From a virus (taxonomy: Duplodnaviria; Heunggongvirae; Uroviricota; Caudoviricetes): a stretch of DNA of 42,122 bases. The DNA lies in IMG/VR virus record IMGVR_UViG_2541047913_000004. One strand, written 5' to 3'. Every line of letters starts with the position of its first letter. The first letter of the stretch is position 1. This document shows positions 2,713 to 42,122 of the stretch, one piece after another. The notes beneath the pieces are model-generated. The model did no database searches, had not been told where the DNA came from, and saw nothing but the letters and a program-made list of their open reading frames with translations. The position numbers and the translations under genes are program-made.

Positions 2713-3537
2713 TCAGGCGGTGAAAGTACCAATAAAGGTTTCTACTTTGCTGTCTTTGAATTTCTCAACAAGCAGATCACGAAATTCGTTAGCCATTTCT
2801 TCCTGCACCGCTTCCAGCTGAATAATGCGCAGAACCAGTACAGGACGATCGCCAGTGATAATGCTGAGGCGTAATTTAAACGGACGTTCTTTCAGACCTT
2901 CAAACGGAACGCATTTAAATTCAAATGCCACTGGCATAATGTCTTTGGTCTTCGCTTCGACAGACTCCATCAGGGAGCGTTTGCCGCTGAAGTCATTATC
3001 TTCAAAATCAGCGGTCTGGTTCGCTTCAATTGTGATTTTACGGATCGCCGCAGCCGCTTTGGTTGCCTGAATGGCGTCACCATTAGCATCAAAGCCCACA
3101 AGGTAGTCGGCCCAGTCTTCAATCCATTCTGCCAGTGACTTCTGGGAGTTACGCTCGCCGTTAACAGACAACAGGGCAGAGAACGGTGCTGTCTTTTTCA
3201 GTTTGAGAGTGGCGGTGTTATCTGCGTGACCTGGTTCATCAATAGTACCCAGGTTAAGCACACTGACGGCTCGCATATTATCGGCATCGATAAAGCAGCG
3301 GGTGCCTTCATCTGCAAGATCTTTAGAATAACGGGTAAAGTCATCGATGCTGGCAGTGGAAAGCGCACCACGGAAACGGAAGCGATTTAAATTAAATTTT
3401 TCCAGATCATGAATGCGGAAATTCTCAGGCAATGCCACAGCATCGGCACCAATCTTACTGATAATTTCATTAACACCCTGAGCAGAAATAAGGGCATGGA
3501 TTTGATTAATTGCGGTTGCGTCTAAGTTCTGAGACAT
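2713..3537 (-). CDS. yfdQ: DUF2303-family prophage protein, YfdQ-like, 274 aa
   Basis: Long clean ORF with ATG at 3535-3537; length and position match CPS-53 yfdQ. Confidence 0.75.
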
Positions 3538-3602
3538 AATAAGTCCTCACTATATAAAGATATTCAGTGATGAGATAAATAATCAGTTTATTAAGAACGA
3601 TA

Positions 3603-3965
3603 TTAATGACCTGCTGCGCGTAGTTTTCCGTCAGGTTCACCGGCAAGAGTCAGTATTTGTCCATAGTCTTCCTGCAGAATAGTCAGGCGACCACCGCGAT
3701 TGACATACATCGGCGTTTCGGTGGTGTCTTCTTCGGAAATTTTCCCGCGGTTAGTTGGGCGAACATATGAGAGTTTGTGTTTGATTTTCACACGGTTCTC
3801 ATCAAACGGTTCGATTTCCAGATTGAGTGAGACCTTCCCTTTGGTTTTCGTGTTCATCACACCGGAAGCGACTTCACTGAGAACTGCGCCGATTTTGGTT
3901 TCAAATACGCCGCCGTCCAGCTCCCCGATAAATGCCTGCACATCAGTACTGCGTTCGCTAGCCAT
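3603..3965 (-). CDS. yfdP: Early-left operon protein, YfdP-like, 120 aa
   Basis: Start placed at the internal Met (MASERSTDVQAFIGELDGG...) because a GAGGAG Shine-Dalgarno lies 7 nt upstream of this ATG (3963-3965). The ORF-track extension to 4283 translates the GC-rich structured region into Arg/Cys-rich low-complexity sequence. Confidence 0.65.
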   Translation of the reverse strand: MASERSTDVQAFIGELDGGVFETKIGAVLSEVASGVMNTKTKGKVSLNLEIEPFDENRVKIKHKLSYVRPTNRGKISEEDTTETPMYVNRGGRLTILQEDYGQILTLAGEPDGKLRAAGH

Positions 3966-3989
3966 TTTGCTGCTCCTCATCATATCGAC

Positions 3990-4330
3990 CCTGCAAGGTC
4001 GGTTGGTTTCTCCACAAAACAGAGAAGAACACCTGCGGTGGCAGCCGCCCGGATGGATTGGGTTATGAGCCCGTCGTCCGGTGATGCTCTTCTCTGTTTT
4101 GTAAAAAGGACGGTACCAGCCGGAAGCAAGGGTACAAGCTGGTACCGCCAGGACTACACACAGCATAAAGTTGTGGTGCCGGGTGCCTCCCGGTGCCTGG
4201 CGAAGGTTGCACACCAGGCGGGTGGGTATCCACAGAAGGTCGACTGTCAGCCTCAACCTTAACCCGCGTGCGCTGAGCCGCATTCACCACAACGCTAAGG
4301 ATTCTCTCTGGTTGAAAATACTTAGCTGTT
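3990..4330. ncRNA. Candidate structured non-coding element (unclassified); strand undetermined
   Basis: GC-rich block with no credible ORF in any frame, packed with perfect inverted repeats: a 15-bp stem 4014-4028/4088-4102 enclosing nested hairpins (4035-4048 and 4049-4053/4077-4081); a 10-bp stem 4111-4120/4138-4147 with a 17-nt loop; hairpins at 4179-4193 and 4195-4219. Flanked by AT-rich sequence. Confidence 0.3.
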
Positions 4331-4434
4331 ATGTGCCTGCTTTTAGCCACATCAGGCGAGGTGGACCTGGTTATTCCCCAACAACAAGGATTCGGTTAAT
4401 CTGGATATCCCCAACAACAATAAGAGTATTCAAT

Positions 4435-4950
4435 GTGATCGCTGAATTAACGGCAGCAATGACGGCTATTCGTGAAACAGCCCAGATTGCAAAACTAATG
4501 AACGAGGCAAAAACTCAATCTGAAGTAAATGCGGCTATTGGTGAGCTAAACTCAAAGCTTGCGTCTATTCAGCGCGAATGCGTGTCTCTCGTTGAACTGG
4601 TGGGCTCTTATCAAGAAATAAATGCTTCTCTCAAAGCTAAAATTGCAGAATTCGAAAACTTTGAGGCTCAGACGGAAGGCTATATCCTTAACCAACTTGA
4701 GTCGGGTACTTTTGTATACTCGAAGGAGGTAATCGTGAACGGTGGCAGCATAACCATGCATCTTTGCCCAAAATGTTTTGGACAAAAGATAGTATCGATA
4801 CTTCAACCATTCCCGGTTAGCGAAGATGAGCTTTTTCATAAAAGCAGGTGCCTCCACTGTGAAAATAAGTTTCTGATGAATAAAAATCCGGATTACGTAT
4901 CGCCTCCATCCATTGAGGAGTTGTCCAGAAAACTTAACGGCAATCTGTAG
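4435..4950 (+). CDS. Hypothetical coiled-coil protein with C-terminal zinc ribbon (CPKC...24 aa...CLHC); candidate lysogenic-conversion or exclusion factor
   Basis: GTG at 4435 with an AAGAG Shine-Dalgarno-like motif about 8 nt upstream (alternative ATG at 4459). N-terminal half is heptad-like and Glu/Lys/Ala-rich; C-terminal half has two CxxC pairs. The residue composition looks like a real protein, whereas the antisense ORF is Phe/Leu/Tyr-rich. Followed by its own intrinsic terminator. Confidence 0.6.
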   Translation: MIAELTAAMTAIRETAQIAKLMNEAKTQSEVNAAIGELNSKLASIQRECVSLVELVGSYQEINASLKAKIAEFENFEAQTEGYILNQLESGTFVYSKEVIVNGGSITMHLCPKCFGQKIVSILQPFPVSEDELFHKSRCLHCENKFLMNKNPDYVSPPSIEELSRKLNGNL

Positions 4951-4989
4951 ATTACTACTGTTGTGGATATCCAGATTGTTAAAGAGCTA

Positions 4990-5012
4990 AGCGTCCTGTA
5001 GGGCGCTTTTTT
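4990..5012 (+). terminator. Rho-independent terminator of the zinc-ribbon gene
   Basis: Hairpin agcgtcc-tgta-gggcgct followed by TTTTTT. The stem has a U-G wobble on the plus-strand RNA that would be a C-A mismatch on the minus strand, so it favours the plus orientation. Confidence 0.6.
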
Positions 5013-5097
5013 GTTGCTAACGAATCATCCTGGACTTCATATGCCCCAGGCGGATACTTCGTGGGCGTCCTGCCTGTTTGTTGTTTCTCTTGGGTAC

Positions 5098-5125
5098 ATT
5101 ATGTATCTCAAAGGTACATTGTCAA
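5098..5125 (-). promoter_or_regulatory. pL-like early-left promoter with overlapping operator-like palindromes (OL)
   Basis: Minus strand has a perfect -35 TTGACA (complement of 5120-5125), a 16-nt spacer and -10 CATAAT (complement of 5098-5103). The palindrome TACAT-T-ATGTA (5095-5105) overlaps the -10, and a GGTACA motif is shared with the cI-cro intergenic operators. Confidence 0.55.
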
Positions 5126-5128
5126 GTA

Positions 5129-5150
5129 TAAAAAAACCTGCCGAAGCAGG
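5129..5150 (-). terminator. Rho-independent terminator downstream of the repressor gene
   Basis: Hairpin cctgc-cgaa-gcagg (5137-5150) followed on the minus strand by a run of 7 U (complement of 5130-5136), 15 nt after the cI stop. Confidence 0.6.
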
Positions 5151-5164
5151 TTCATAAACATTGA

Positions 5165-5839
5165 TTAAGCTTTGATTTTGTATCTTCTTGGTTTTCCTGA
5201 GAAAATCACAGTTCCAATTATAGAGCAATTACCGTTGATCTTAATGTAAGGCTCAGGCCAGTTTGGGTTTAACGCTTTGAGATAACGCTGTGTCCCATCT
5301 TCTATCAACCTTTTGAAGGTGGTTTCACCTGTATCGTGCATCAATGCAATAACGTCGTCACCGTGGCAGGCAGGTACTTCAGGATCGACAAAAATCATGT
5401 CTCCCGGGCGGTACTCATCAATCATTGAATCACCTATCACCCGCAAGATATAAGTCATTTCCCCACAGGGTACAGGGCAGGGATACGTTTCTGCTGTGCT
5501 CAAATCAACCTCAGAATATCCAACTTCTTTCCATGCTCCGGCCTGTACCCATGATATGACAGGGACTAATGTGATTTGTTTATTAGTGATTGAAACATCA
5601 GGTTTTTTTGTGATGTTCGTTGTCTGGTGTTCTTGATCGAGCCATCCGACAGGCAGGTCGAAACATTTTTCTATGTGTCGTGCCATGCTGTCACCGATAT
5701 TTTTAGTAGCACCATCTCCCATAAACCTGCTGGTCTGGGTTGGCTCGCGATCAATCATAGTGGCAAAGGAAGAATTCCCGCCAACACCATCTCTCAGTTT
5801 TCTGGCGTTAGACCGCCGGATGTCATGGATTGTTTTCAT
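5165..5839 (-). CDS. cI: CI-type prophage repressor with LexA-like S24 autopeptidase domain, 224 aa
   Basis: C-terminal domain carries the Ser nucleophile in ...VIGDSM... and a downstream Lys (...TFKRL...), as in LexA/CI self-cleaving repressors. Divergently arranged with a Cro-like gene across an operator-containing intergenic region. Confidence 0.85.
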   Translation of the reverse strand: MKTIHDIRRSNARKLRDGVGGNSSFATMIDREPTQTSRFMGDGATKNIGDSMARHIEKCFDLPVGWLDQEHQTTNITKKPDVSITNKQITLVPVISWVQAGAWKEVGYSEVDLSTAETYPCPVPCGEMTYILRVIGDSMIDEYRPGDMIFVDPEVPACHGDDVIALMHDTGETTFKRLIEDGTQRYLKALNPNWPEPYIKINGNCSIIGTVIFSGKPRRYKIKA

Positions 5840-5929
5840 AACGAAATTAAAACCCTCGTACCGTTAAGGTACAAGTATCTTGAAGGTTCATTTCAATCAT
5901 GTAATATGTACATCGGAGGTACATATTGT
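5840..5929. promoter_or_regulatory. OR-like region: pR (rightward), probable pRM (leftward), operator palindromes
   Basis: Plus strand has -35 TTGAAG (5880-5885), a 16-nt spacer and -10 TAATAT (5902-5907) ahead of a GGAGG Shine-Dalgarno and the cro ATG. Palindromes GTACC-N5-GGTAC (5858-5872), ATGTA-ATATG-TACAT (5899-5913) and TGTAC-N7-GTACA (5907-5923) overlap the promoter. Confidence 0.6.
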
Positions 5930-6130
5930 ATGAAAGCGTATTGGGACTCTTTAACCAAAGAACAGCAGGGCGAGTTGGCCGGAAAAGTTGGCTCAACACC
6001 TGGCTACTTACGGCTGGTTTTCAATGGCTATAAAAAAGCCAGTTTTGTGCTGGCTAAAAAACTTGAGCAATGCACGTCAGGTGCAATTACGAAATCTGAC
6101 TTAAGACCGGATATCTATCCGAAAGATTAG
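5930..6130 (+). CDS. cro: Cro/YdaS-like HTH regulator, 66 aa
   Basis: Small ORF divergent from cI with a GGAGG Shine-Dalgarno 9 nt upstream of the ATG; helix-turn-helix-like segment ...GSTPGYLRLVFNGYKKASF... Confidence 0.75.
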   Translation: MKAYWDSLTKEQQGELAGKVGSTPGYLRLVFNGYKKASFVLAKKLEQCTSGAITKSDLRPDIYPKD

Positions 6131-6369
6131 CAGAACACTTTCAATTTTTAACCACAGAACGATGAGGCTAATCGTGGGTAAGCATCACTGGAAAATAGAA
6201 AAACAGCCTGAGTGGTACGTGAAAGCTGTCAGAAAAACTATCGCGGCGTTGCCGGGTGGTTACGCTGAAGCGGCTGATTGGCTCGATGTAACAGAAAACG
6301 CTTTATTCAACCGCCTGAACCGCCCCGGGAATCCTGGAGACTAAACTTCCTGAGAAAGAGGTAAACAGG

Positions 6370-6696
6370 ATGACTAAAAATACTCGTTTTTCCCCCGAAG
6401 TCCGTCAACGGGCAGTCCGTATGGTTCTGGAAAGTCAGAGCGAATATGACTCACAATGGGCGACAATTTGTTCCATTGCTCCAAAGATTGGCTGTACGCC
6501 GGAGACTCTGCGTGTCTGGGTTCGCCAGCATGAGCGGGATACCGGGGGCGGTGATGGAGGGCTCACCACCGCTGAACGTCAGCGTCTGAAAGAGCTGGAA
6601 CGTGAAAATCGTGAACTGCGCCGCAGTAACGATATCCTTCGCCAGGCTTCCGCTTATTTTGCGAAGGCGGAGTTCGACCGCCTCTGGAAAAAATGA
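6370..6696 (+). CDS. IS629 OrfA (transposase N-terminal HTH protein), 108 aa
   Basis: HTH and leucine-zipper-like sequence typical of IS3-family OrfA; ends in an A6 run (6688-6693) that overlaps the orfB start. Confidence 0.9.
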
Positions 6697-7583
6697 TGCC
6701 ACTGCTGGATAAGCTGCGTGAGCAGTACGGGGTCGGACCGCTATGCAGCGAACTGCATATTGCCCCGTCAACGTATTACCACTGTCAGCAACAGCGACAT
6801 CATCCTGATAAACGCAGTGCCCGTGCGCAGCGCGATGACTGGCTGAAGAAAGAGATACAGCGCGTATACGATGAAAATCACAAGGTATACGGTGTGCGTA
6901 AAGTCTGGCGTCAGTTGTTACGGGAAGGTATCAGAGTGGCCAGATGCACTGTGGCACGTCTCATGGCGGTTATGGGACTTGCCGGTGTTCTCCGGGGTAA
7001 AAAGGTCCGTACGACCATCAGCCGGAAAGCCGTTGCCGCAGGCGACCGCGTAAACCGTCAGTTCGTGGCAGAACGACCTGACCAGCTGTGGGTGGCTGAT
7101 TTTACTTACGTCAGCACATGGCGGGGCTTCGTCTATGTGGCGTTCATCATTGATGTGTTTGCCGGATACATCGTGGGGTGGCGGGTCTCATCGTCCATGG
7201 AAACGACATTCGTGCTGGATGCACTGGAGCAGGCGTTATGGGCCCGTCGACCGTCCGGCACGGTCCATCACAGTGATAAAGGTTCTCAGTATGTATCGCT
7301 GGCCTACACACAGCGGCTTAAGGAAGCCGGATTACTGGCATCAACAGGAAGTACAGGCGACTCGTATGACAACGCGATGGCGGAGAGCATCAATGGTCTT
7401 TACAAAGCGGAGGTAATACACCGTAAGAGCTGGAAAAACCGTGCAGAAGTGGAACTGGCCACACTCACGTGGGTGGACTGGTATAACAATCGACGATTGC
7501 TGGAAAGGCTGGGCCATACTCCTCCGGCAGAAGCAGAAAAAGCTTATTATGCTTCCATCGGAAACGATGATCTGGCAGCCTGA
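6693..7583 (+). CDS. IS629 OrfB (DDE transposase catalytic domain), 296 aa
   Basis: DDE/RNase H-fold integrase-like region (...WVADFTYV... ...HSDKGSQY... ...DNAMAES...). Lies in the -1 frame relative to orfA, so an OrfAB fusion by -1 frameshifting at the A6 run is expected. Confidence 0.9.
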
Positions 7584-8034
7584 GTTCACAGATAAAACAC
7601 TCTCCAGGAAACCCGGGGCGGTTCAGCCTTCGTGCAGATGGCGATCAGATTTTCCCGCTGGGATGGGCAATGGTTTTACAGCGTGCTGGTGGCACTCACT
7701 TCATTGCTGATGCTGTGGCGCAGTCTGCAAATGGCGTCTTTGTGTCTCTTCCTGACGTCGAGGATGTGGACAACGCCGATATTAACCAGCGCCTGCTGGA
7801 AGTCATTGAACAGATCGGCAGTTATTCAAAACAGATTCGTTCAGCAATTGAAGACGGTGTAGTGGAACCGCATGAGAAGACAGCAATTAACGACGAGCTG
7901 TACCTCTCAATTTCGAAGCTGCAGGAGCATGCAGCACTGGTCTACAAAATTTTTTGCATTTCAGAAAGTAATGACGCCCGCGAGTGTGCAGCTCCGGGCG
8001 CCGTGGCGTGTCGTGACTGTGGAGAAACTAACGC

Positions 8035-8393
8035 ATGAACAGTTTAACAACACACTACCGTCGCTCGCAACTGATTGCGCTTCCTGTACCGGGTGGAAAA
8101 GCGAAGGTGGAGTATTGCTATGCAGTAAATGTACCAGGTGACAGGGAAATTGTAACCCACAGCTTTGCAGAGTGGGCTGTGGGTGATTTCAACCGGCAGA
8201 AGGAGACAGTCCTTTGCGACAAGTTAACCGCTGGTTCAAAGATCACTACGGAGTGCCCGTCAGAGTCATTCGTTGGGAGCCGGAAACACAACGTGTTATC
8301 TACCTCCGCGAAGGCTATGAGCATGAGTGCTTCAGCCCGCTCGAACAGTTTCGTCGTAAATTCAGGGAAATAGAGGTCGGTCATGAGCACTAA
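8035..8393 (+). pseudogene. Hypothetical phage gene with apparent frameshift (two-frame ORF)
   Basis: Frame A (ATG 8035) looks protein-like for about 60 codons and then degenerates. Frame B opens at 8187, has no ATG, and encodes a plausible ...[47 protein letters not shown]... tail ending at 8393. Consistent with a 1-nt indel near 8190-8225 or a sequencing error. Confidence 0.4.
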
Positions 8394-9324
8394 ATTAACC
8401 GGCTATGTATGGGATGGTTGCGCTGCATCAGGCATGAAATTATCCAGCGTGGCAATTATGGCCCGCCTGGCTGATTTCAGTAATGACGAAGGTGTGTGCT
8501 GGCCATCAATTGAAACCATTGCCCGCCAGATTGGCGCGGGGATGAGTACCGTCAGAACGGCTATCGCACGGCTGGAAGCAGAAGGCTGGTTAACGCGTAG
8601 GGCGCGTCGCCAGGGTAACCGCAATGCGTCGAATGTTTATCAGCTTAACGTTGCGAAGCTTCAGGCAGCGGCATTTTCTCAACTGTCAGATTCTGACCCG
8701 TCAAAATCTGACGCATCAAAATCTGCCCCGTCAAAATTTGATGCGTCGAAATCTGGCAAAAAAGCGGGTTTTCACCCGTCAGAATCTGGTGGGGATCCGT
8801 CAGTAAAATCAAAACATGATCCGTCAGATAAAAAAACTTCTCGTCCGGACGCTTCGCAACCGGACACGCAGACGGCTGAACAGGATTTTTTAACTCGCCA
8901 TCCTGATGCGGTTGTATTCAGCCCTAAAAAGCGCCAGTGGGGGACGCAGGATGATTTGACCTGCGCACAGTGGCTCTGGAAAAAAATCATCGCCCTGTAC
9001 GAGCATGCCGCCGAATGTGACGGCGAGGTGGTTCGTCCCAAAGAACCGAACTGGACAGCCTGGGCAAACGAAATTCGCCTGATGTGTGTGCAGGATGGTC
9101 GTACTCATAAACAAATCTGCGAGATGTACAGCCGCGTCAGTCGCGATCCGTTCTGGTGCCGTAACGTGCTCAGCCCGTCGAAGCTGCGGGAAAAATGGGA
9201 TGAGCTTTCCCTGCGCTTATCGCCGTCCGTCAGCACGTACACCGAAAAACGCGAAGACCCGTACTTCAAAGCCAGTTACGACAACGTGGACTACAGCCAG
9301 ATCCCGGCAGGATTCAGGGGGTGA
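8383..9324 (+). CDS. Replication initiator (lambda O-like, N-terminal HTH), 313 aa
   Basis: N-terminal winged-HTH-like region; the central part contains iterated DPSKSDASKS-type peptide repeats that reflect DNA iterons; occupies the O position after cro/cII. Confidence 0.8.
   Translation: MSTKLTGYVWDGCAASGMKLSSVAIMARLADFSNDEGVCWPSIETIARQIGAGMSTVRTAIARLEAEGWLTRRARRQGNRNASNVYQLNVAKLQAAAFSQLSDSDPSKSDASKSAPSKFDASKSGKKAGFHPSESGGDPSVKSKHDPSDKKTSRPDASQPDTQTAEQDFLTRHPDAVVFSPKKRQWGTQDDLTCAQWLWKKIIALYEHAAECDGEVVRPKEPNWTAWANEIRLMCVQDGRTHKQICEMYSRVSRDPFWCRNVLSPSKLREKWDELSLRLSPSVSTYTEKREDPYFKASYDNVDYSQIPAGFRG
8698..8835 (+). repeat. Replication-origin-like iterons inside the initiator gene
   Basis: About 15-bp units CCGTCAAAATCTGAC / GCATCAAAATCTGCC / CCGTCAAAATTTGAT / GCGTCGAAATCTGGC in tandem (8698-8756), with further copies at 8775-8789, 8797-8810 and 8821-8835 ending in an A-rich tract. 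Same organisation as ori-lambda inside O. Confidence 0.6.
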
Positions 9325-13020: not shown

Positions 13021-13404
13021 ATGCGTGATATTCAGATGGTTCTTGAACGTTGGGGAGCGTGGGCGGCTAATAATCATGAAGATGTGACCTGGTCGTCCAT
13101 TGCCGCCGGTTTTAAGGGATTAATTCCTTCAAAAGTAAAATCTCGCCCGCAATGTTGTGACGATGACGCGATGATTATTTGCGGGTGCATGGCCCGTCTG
13201 AAAAAGAACAACAGCGATTTGCACGATTTATTAGTAGATTATTATGTAGTCGGTATGACATTCATGTCACTGGCAGGTAAGCATTGCTGCTCTGATGGTT
13301 ATATCGGGAAAAGGTTACAGAAGGCTGAGGGCATAATTGAAGGGATGTTAATGGCATTAGATATCCGGTTAGAGATGGATATCGTTGTTAATAACTCTAA
13401 TTAA
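13021..13404 (+). CDS. quuD: Late-gene antiterminator Q (QuuD-type), 127 aa
   Basis: Start at the internal Met ([24 protein letters not shown]...); Cys-rich motif [16 protein letters not shown]; position immediately before the late-operon leader and lysis genes. Confidence 0.8.
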
Positions 13405-41538: not shown

Positions 41539-42122
41539 TGGCATTCAGAATGAGTGAACAACCACGGACCATAAAAATTTATAATCTGCTGGCCGGAACT
41601 AATGAATTTATTGGTGAAGGTGACGCATATATTCCGCCTCATACAGGTCTGCCAGCAAACAGTACCGATATTGCACCGCCAGATATTCCGGCTGGCTTTG
41701 TGGCTGTTTTCAACAGTGATGAGGCATCGTGGCATCTCGTTGAAGACCATCGGGGTAAAACCGTCTATGACGTGGCTTCCGGCGACGCGTTATTTATTTC
41801 TGAACTCGGCTCATTACCGGAAAATGTCACCTGGTTATCCCCGGAAGGGGAGTTTCAGAAGTGGAACGGCACAACCTGGGTGAAAGATGCAGAAGCAGAA
41901 AAACTGTTCCGGATCCGGGAGGCGGAAGAAACAAAAAACAGCCTGATGCAGGTAGCCAGTGAGCATATTGCGCCACTTCAGGATGCTGCAGATCTGGAAA
42001 TCGCAACGGAGGGAGAAACCTCGTTGCTGGAAGCCTGGAAAAAGTATCGGGTGTTGCTGAACCGTGTTGATACATCAACTGCACCTGATATTGAGTGGCC
42101 TACGAACCCTGTCAGGGAGTAA
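41538..42122 (+). CDS. tfa: Tail fibre assembly protein Tfa, 194 aa
   Basis: 194 aa, coupled by TAATG to stf; lambda Tfa-like; its stop codon is the last 3 nt of the window. Confidence 0.9.

Follow-up and report, generated by a model that had tools for sequence, protein, structure and literature searches.

A conserved pL-leader RNA in an e14/SfV-type lambdoid prophage without N, a candidate for RNA-mediated early antitermination

To our knowledge, processive antitermination by RNA alone is known essentially from one family, the put (polymerase-utilisation) elements of the lambdoid phages HK022 and HK639, which need no protein partner and suppress pausing and termination by way of the beta' zinc-binding domain of RNA polymerase. 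In HK022, the putL RNA lies directly behind the early promoter pL (PMC9378689). How lambdoid phages without an N protein express their early operons is an acknowledged gap, stated as such in a 2025 Genome Research paper on phage LLS; LLS belongs to the phage class considered here, with a yfdP/Q/R left operon, and its authors note the lack of N and guess at a put-like mechanism (PMC12315714). Here, we describe a computational analysis of another member of this class, IMG/VR record IMGVR_UViG_2541047913_000004, a stretch of 42,122 nucleotides (the window) whose first 14 kb are the early region of an e14/SfV/PhiR49-type lambdoid prophage. Its subject is a conserved RNA motif of about 65 nt at positions 5019-5082 of the minus strand, which begins about 10 nt past the predicted start of the pL transcript. 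The RNA family is new, and a function in RNA-mediated early antitermination is proposed for it.

In its general plan the leader motif resembles put. Both are structured RNAs of ~65-75 nt that lie immediately downstream of pL, at the 5' end of an early transcript, in lambdoid phages without N. Both combine two hairpins and a further helix with highly conserved unpaired residues, and a single left-operon copy is a feature shared with HK639. The two differ in that no sequence can be aligned between them and in their folds, the motif being a three-way junction closed by helix P1 whereas put consists of a pseudoknotted stem I and a stem II; a second copy of the putR type, as found in HK022, is also missing. 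Hwang et al. 2022 aligned ten "known put sequences", which are described as having put-specific residues in common; the motif lacks these residues. A covariance model of put (R2) recovers its three training sequences (HK022 putL, HK022 putR and HK639 putL) at 72-99 bits and finds nothing in the early region of the window, its best matches in the window (E = 4 and 7) lying elsewhere; a calibrated covariance model of the motif (R1) finds no match in HK022 or HK639. Homology to put was considered on account of CGAAC..GGC and AGGAUGA strings that look alike by eye and was rejected, as the order of the blocks differs, CGAAC falls within the variable P1 helix and neither model matches the other's sequences. 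An ops/RfaH site, a hammerhead-like core and a CsrA site were set aside by inspection only, the matching letters being not conserved or in the wrong order.

The N/nut system of lambda shares with the window a promoter-proximal RNA signal in an early operon and a boxA on the pL transcript. It differs in that the window lacks both the N protein, an arginine-rich product of the first gene of the pL operon, and a boxB, with its GNRA-like loop, on the 3' side of boxA (the neighbouring hairpin stands 5' of boxA, and its tetraloop varies between loci), and in that nothing comparable is found on the pR side of the window. The boxA of rrn operons and CRISPR leaders, which acts with Nus factors to protect untranslated RNA from Rho (PMC7665894), shares with the window copy the exact sequence GCUCUUUAACAA, a hairpin before it (the boxB-to-boxA order of rrn) and a long untranslated RNA after it. 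The window copy differs in lying inside a phage pL transcript, where it is physically joined to the terminator of an inserted gene that runs convergently.

A conserved RNA at the 5' end of pL transcripts

The pL promoter of the window (5098-5125, minus strand) agrees with the consensus at 11 of 12 positions, with a -35 hexamer TTGACA (5125-5120), a 16-nt spacer and a -10 hexamer CATAAT (5103-5098). Transcription is predicted to start near 5091, and ATGTACC operator half-sites flank the promoter; SfV, PhiR49 and the e14 prophage of Escherichia coli K-12 have this same promoter and these operators. When the pL region was compared by BLAST, one segment (query ~81-148, window ~5085-5018) proved to be conserved alone in phages with unrelated repressors and operators, among them SfII, phiNP, ZF40, YeP1-3, AH07, ST64B, mEp237, SPN3UB, SEN34 and Klebsiella phages. 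This segment holds the leader motif. Helix P1 pairs 5077-5082 with 5019-5024 and helix P3 pairs 5046-5050 with 5029-5033. The core, AGGCAGGACGCCCACGAAGUAGCYGCC, is near-invariant, and the P3 loop reads GGCRUAYGAAnn; between the helices stand a nearly invariant AGGCAGGACGCCCAYG, 2-3 nt and then GUAGCYGCC. IMG/VR and one genome of each species were scanned with sequence patterns, and with the phage records added this yielded 182 distinct variants of the motif. The 15-nt word used for scanning owes its invariance in part to the design of the scan; another scan, anchored differently, did return variants whose loop is longer by one base. In 176 of the 182 variants, the 3' strand of P1 is preceded by an AUGA junction.

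The two helices are supported by covariation. In an alignment of 98 sequences (93 distinct), 10 of the 11 base pairs of P1 and P3 show two-sided, compensatory changes; 95.5% of the P1/P3 cells can pair, as against 21-47% when the partners are slid, and none of 500 shuffles reached the observed score. P1 occurs as AACGAA/UUCGUU, AGCGAA/UUCGCU, CCACC/GGUGG and GUCAUC/GAUGAC, and P3 as CCUGG/CCAGG, CCCGG/CCGGG, CUACC/GGUAG, CCGAC/GUCGG and others. The G-U pairs are consistent with the pL-sense strand only, and RNAalifold finds P1 and P3 independently. The motif is thus a real, structured RNA and a well-supported new family. Rfam 15 gave no match to it, even at E <= 10 with the near-consensus copy of SfII, and the literature on ymfJ, ymfK and e14 and on put-like elements held nothing relevant to it. 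An RNA annotation was present on 0 of 25 sampled E. coli matches, one of which overlaps a coding sequence (CDS) for a hypothetical protein.

The copy in the window has P1, P3, the AGGCAGGACGCCCAYG..GUAGC core and the AUGA junction behind a pL-type promoter, and is scored by R1 at 85.9 bits (E = 8e-30). It departs from the consensus at two places. One is an A.C mismatch in P1 (5079/5022), common to SfV and e14; the other is a G-to-U change at 5054, within the otherwise invariant GUAG, which is unique among the 182 variants. Because of the latter, a competing hairpin (CAGGC.GGA/UCC.GCCUG) beats the covariation-supported P3 in the minimum-energy fold of the single sequence.

Phages of E. coli, Shigella, Salmonella, Klebsiella, Citrobacter, Yersinia, Pectobacterium and Pantoea carry the motif, and its occurrences in prophages span more than 20 named genera of the Enterobacterales, among them Xenorhabdus, Photorhabdus, Yersinia, Serratia, Pectobacterium, Erwinia, Pantoea, Klebsiella, Citrobacter, Enterobacter and Kosakonia. 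It was found in 1855 of 5426 complete E. coli genomes, including that of K-12, where it lies in e14 between ymfK and ymfJ. An exact 22-nt core also occurs in two assemblies labelled as belonging outside the Enterobacterales, Chryseobacterium sp. 18061 and Pseudomonas lundensis, which may reflect contamination or mislabelling.

Each phage has exactly one copy by R1, on the pL side. In the window, a second copy on the pR side was sought with sequence patterns, with R1 at its default filters and with R1 with its filters off across 3400-9000, and none was found. In nearly every non-redundant locus a sigma-70 promoter of the TTGAC type ends 12-23 nt upstream of P1; in the window, 15 nt separate the -10 hexamer from the beginning of P1. 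It follows that pL transcripts have the motif at their 5' end. The operators around these promoters differ widely, representing many immunity types, and the motif stays constant.

Early antitermination signals and the structured element of the left operon

The original prediction for this locus had held that no N-type antiterminator is encoded next to pL. The candidate open reading frames (ORFs) of the left operon, inventoried stop-to-stop and comprising also the sole pair of minus-strand ORFs without an assignment (4063-4350 and 4552-4857), gave no match to the N/Nun family in scans with PHROGs and Pfam profiles, which bears the claim out. The annotations of SfV, SfII, phiNP, ZF40, mEp237 and ST64B likewise hold no N. 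The accompanying claim, that no obvious boxA/boxB pair is to be seen, stands for a pair of the lambda type, which was not found in the window, and for boxA of the CGCTCTTA type, which is not enriched there. It fails for boxA of the rrn type. At 4976-4987 on the minus strand, about 105 nt downstream of the point where pL is predicted to start, the 12-mer GCTCTTTAACAA reproduces the rrn boxA core exactly. No other exact copy exists in the window, where by our own estimate ~0.005 would be expected by chance on both strands.

No nut site stands behind both promoters, boxA being confined to the left. On the right, the only candidate is ACTCTTTAACCA, a boxA-like word with two mismatches at 5946-5957 (plus strand), inside cro and ~30-40 nt after the likely pR start, which is not statistically significant. 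The pR operon may need no antitermination, because its genes are tightly packed, overlapping or closely spaced, and no strong intrinsic terminator is predicted before the late antiterminator gene Q.

boxA stands directly 3' of an asymmetric hairpin (4989-5008, both strands) and directly before ~515 nt of untranslated RNA antisense to a convergent gene. Read on the plus strand, the hairpin is the terminator of that gene, with a free energy of -12.1 kcal/mol and a U-run after it; on the pL transcript it contains a C.A mismatch, has a free energy of -7.5 kcal/mol and has no U-run. The two elements recur as a unit consisting of an A-run, GCGCCC-NNNN-GGACGC, UUA and GCUCUUUAACAAU. This module is present at 23 of the 182 non-redundant motif loci (~13%), in the pL sense in all 23 and antisense in none, with distances, loop sequences and flanking genes that vary between loci; 11 of these loci have a convergent ORF, 60 aa or longer, whose end falls no more than ~30 nt downstream. 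With the rrn consensus on its transcript and a long untranslated RNA below it, the window boxA appears from its sequence to be an ordinary rrn-type boxA whose setting is unusual, and on the simplest reading the hairpin and boxA together would let pL transcription cross the convergent insert.

The inserted gene itself (a moron of family phrog_1244; 4435-4950, plus strand) encodes a protein whose C-terminal part holds a CxxC...CxxC motif. Inverted repeats of 26 nt (4398-4423 and 4952-4977; 85% complementary) enclose the gene, and a direct repeat, TCCCCAACAACAA (4375-4387 and 4408-4420), lies beside the left arm. These repeats suggest a discrete mobile or recombination-prone cassette. SfV and e14 lack the phrog_1244 gene and have other genes at that position.

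Between the insert and yfdP, the first gene of the left operon, the minus strand of region 3966-4440 folds far better than shuffled sequences (z = -6.1). Within it, 4100-4323 aligns with the whole of the Rfam model of STnc100 (RF02076, positions 1-206) at 42.4 bits (E = 3.7e-7), below the gathering score of 47; the homologue in ST64B scores 35.1 bits. The alignment spans the conserved CACCGGGAGGCACCCGGCACCA core and the terminal terminator, a hairpin at 4109-4149 with a U-run at 4102-4106 (-25.7 kcal/mol, z = -4.85). A Rho-independent terminator at the 3' end and a location in a prophage are both features of STnc100, and we regard the element, an STnc100/PasD-like module, as a borderline relative. 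STnc100/PasD RNAs are small RNAs (sRNAs) of prophages whose function is unclear, and related copies in late operons, downstream of stx2 or near Q, have been described as sRNAs (bioRxiv 10.64898/2026.05.13.724894; PMC12370729). The window element shares with them its alignment over the whole model and its prophage-borne state, and differs in belonging to an early-left operon and not to the late region, with Q, stx or lysis genes nearby. Identity with PasA or PasC was rejected, those sRNAs belonging to the late region and not to pL.

Directly beyond the sRNA lies a long, nearly perfect hairpin of 99 nt (4009-4107, minus strand; -51.2 kcal/mol, z = -8.15) followed by UUUUGUGG. It is 98% conserved in mEp460, 2H10 and Stx2c phages, and a small hairpin separates it from the ribosome-binding site of yfdP. 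The long hairpin might serve as a second terminator, or else as a site of RNase III-type processing in front of yfdP. In 47 other loci, the motif is followed by sequence that is homologous to the STnc100-like element and has a family of spurious ORFs called over it. In K-12-type e14 (L234), the ymfH CDS at 4300-4611 overlaps the homologue of the STnc100-like RNA and the long hairpin (4245-4604), and ymfH may be a mis-called ORF over structured RNA.

The original prediction had named the structured element at 3990-4330 as a candidate cis-acting antiterminator. What lies there instead is an STnc100-like sRNA with its terminator and a long hairpin, and the element is best read as an sRNA/terminator cluster in the left operon, an obstacle to transcription rather than an antiterminator. 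The broader notion, under which early antitermination is not needed or else comes from an RNA acting in cis, is partly supported: N is absent, the pR operon is compact and a conserved RNA lies close to the promoter, although the element that had been named for the role was the wrong one. The leader motif, 700 nt further upstream and right behind pL, is the better candidate.

A possible put-like role for the leader RNA, and its alternatives

The reading that we prefer, to which we give a probability of roughly 45%, is that the leader motif would act by analogy with put as a cis-acting antiterminator of the pL operon, with boxA as a helper and with pR needing none. The first ~75 nt of the pL transcript would fold into a conserved three-helix RNA, and this RNA, still attached to its RNA polymerase, would make the polymerase resistant to the terminators of the left operon, namely the STnc100-like terminator, the long hairpin and weaker sites beyond. 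It would thus do the same job as the put RNA of HK022 by an unrelated sequence and fold. boxA would load NusB/NusE and other Nus factors and shield the antisense RNA of the insert from Rho, as an add-on used where it is needed; the pR operon would probably need no such element. A put-like modification in cis appears the most economical because of the position of the motif, its conservation among heteroimmune phages, the absence of N or of any linked protein, the terminators downstream and the precedent of HK022 and HK639. That the terminators lie between the motif and the genes of the operon also supports it.

Several observations weigh against this reading. The role is drawn from position and analogy, and the motif does not match put in sequence or structure. 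boxA is present at only ~13% of the motif loci. A crude scan detected terminators on the sense strand in only 114 of 163 loci and gave a higher score to the antisense control; the scan was not discriminating, and an enrichment of terminators downstream of the motif was rejected as a line of evidence. The window copy, with its mismatch in P1 and its unique change at 5054, may be impaired or defective, and the prophage additionally carries an IS3 insertion in ymfL. The sequence strings of the motif occur in no searchable paper, and an earlier description may exist elsewhere. Finally, 2H10, cdtI, mEp460 and Stx2c phages share the terminator, the long hairpin and yfdP, and some of them also the cI and pL of the window, without having the motif, which is thus not indispensable for this gene layout. 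These relatives carry a different conserved leader of ~250 nt (3090-3470 in 2H10, L130; 2585-2865 in mEp460, L235), parts of which also occur in phiV10, TL-2011b, P1 and P1-like phages; either it takes over the task of the motif, or that task can be dispensed with. The alternative leader has no Rfam match. It holds GUAGCCG, GACGCC and GAUGA words reminiscent of the motif.

Two other roles for the motif appear unlikely, and to about the same degree. It might be a nut-like docking site that recruits to the polymerase a trans-acting factor, which could be a phage protein without relation to N or a Nus-type protein of the host. The near-invariant loop region of ~25 nt resembles a sequence-specific binding surface, the lambda, P22 and rrn systems all use RNA sites together with proteins, and an rrn-type boxA adjoins the motif in some loci. 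However, no gene is consistently linked to it. The genes after the motif differ between phages, the first downstream ORFs belong to many unrelated families, and scans of these ORFs with hidden Markov models detected neither the N family nor any annotated antiterminator; the phage backbones that carry the motif are very diverse, and ~87% of the loci have no boxA. A partner from the host may nevertheless be involved.

Alternatively, the role of the motif might have nothing to do with termination, and the RNA might serve as a 5' stabiliser of the mRNA, as a ligand-sensing or regulatory leader, or as a processed small RNA or decoy. A place at the 5' end of the transcript would suit such a role, prophage early regions are rich in sRNAs (STnc100-like, isrK, C4), and any tie of the motif to RNA polymerase is a proposed one. 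Yet a simple 5' hairpin is enough for stabilising, which leaves no need for an invariant core of 25 nt. No expression platform is conserved; the distance to the next gene runs from ~26 nt in SfV to more than 1 kb in the window, and most loci have no terminator right after the motif. Among the loci examined, moreover, the motif was never found away from a pL-type promoter.

It seems more doubtful still that early antitermination does not take place at all, so that most pL transcripts would end at the STnc100-like terminator, the genes beyond would be served by leaky read-through or internal promoters, and motif and boxA would be bystanders. The relatives without the motif do keep the same terminators, and the pR operon shows no need of antitermination. 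Against this, the motif has evolved under strong purifying selection and with compensatory changes in more than 20 named genera, which points to a function tied to pL transcription, and the left operon reaches xis and int only at its far end, after several hairpins that resemble terminators. As for the 3990-4330 element, its strong structure, conservation and place in the pL operon lend very little probability to its being a cis-acting antiterminator itself, in view of its match to an sRNA family, the canonical terminator at its end, its distance of ~770-1100 nt from pL when another conserved element directly abuts the promoter, and the related STnc100 copies of late operons.

The reading of the motif as a put-like antiterminator has a wider form, which we hold slightly more tentatively than the reading itself. 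The motif would be a second class of protein-independent, polymerase-binding antiterminator RNA, analogous to put and structurally unrelated to it, on which a large share of the N-less lambdoid prophages across Enterobacterales would rely, e14 included, and convergent inserts would bring along their own terminator/boxA module. If true, RNA-only antitermination would be a common strategy, with a second and much more widespread RNA carried by a third of the complete E. coli genomes, and structural work would gain a new natural RNA ligand of RNA polymerase. The question is accessible in E. coli K-12 by way of the copy in e14. From the fused terminator/boxA module, a way suggests itself for inserted genes to lie against the direction of an operon and leave it intact. 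Should the antitermination role prove wrong, there is still a well-supported new RNA family in those 1855 E. coli genomes.

Prophage type and gene layout

The cI, pL and cro sequences of the window are of the same type as those of the ymfK/ymfT region of K-12 e14. On the minus strand, the early-left region begins with int (1-1164), followed by xis and by yfdT-like, EaE-like and yfdR-like genes, yfdQ (2713-3537) and the yfdP-like CDS (3603-3965; phrog_204, E = 1e-47), which corresponds to a gene annotated as YfdP in PhiR49_1. A long non-coding stretch separates yfdP from the plus-strand inserted gene. The yfdP-like gene is the first minus-strand gene of the left operon, ~1.1 kb downstream of pL, in agreement with the original prediction, which had placed it more than 1 kb away. 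Upstream of pL lies the cI-like repressor gene (LexA/S24 family, e14 ymfK type; 5165-5839, minus strand) with a terminator of its own at 5134-5153.

On the plus strand, the Cro-like repressor gene (e14 ymfT type; 5930-6130) is followed after 31 nt by the 5' part of a ymfL/ydaT-like gene (6162-6344), the spacing and order that had been predicted for a CII/YdaT-like gene. An IS3-family element (6345-7600) cuts this gene, which resumes at ~7670-8038; the element comprises orfA (6370-6696) and orfB (6693-7583) and has an ALIL frameshift pseudoknot at 6651-6767 (120 bits). Lying just after cro, the insertion should be polar on the whole pR operon, and the prophage is therefore probably defective. 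Past the ymfL/ydaT-like gene the order is ymfM, O, yfdN, dam, a LexA-like gene, rusA, two ORFs and Q, the last of which (13021-13404) is the late-region antiterminator that had been predicted.

Two RNA families that the window lacks, isrK and C4 antisense RNA, have matches above their gathering scores in the right operon of relatives, near an antirepressor-type regulator (ST64B, L233, 21-97; 2H10, L130, 896-983 and 1008-1084). Near its end, at 41881-42079 (plus strand), the window has a full-length match to the IS009 RNA family (225.7 bits).

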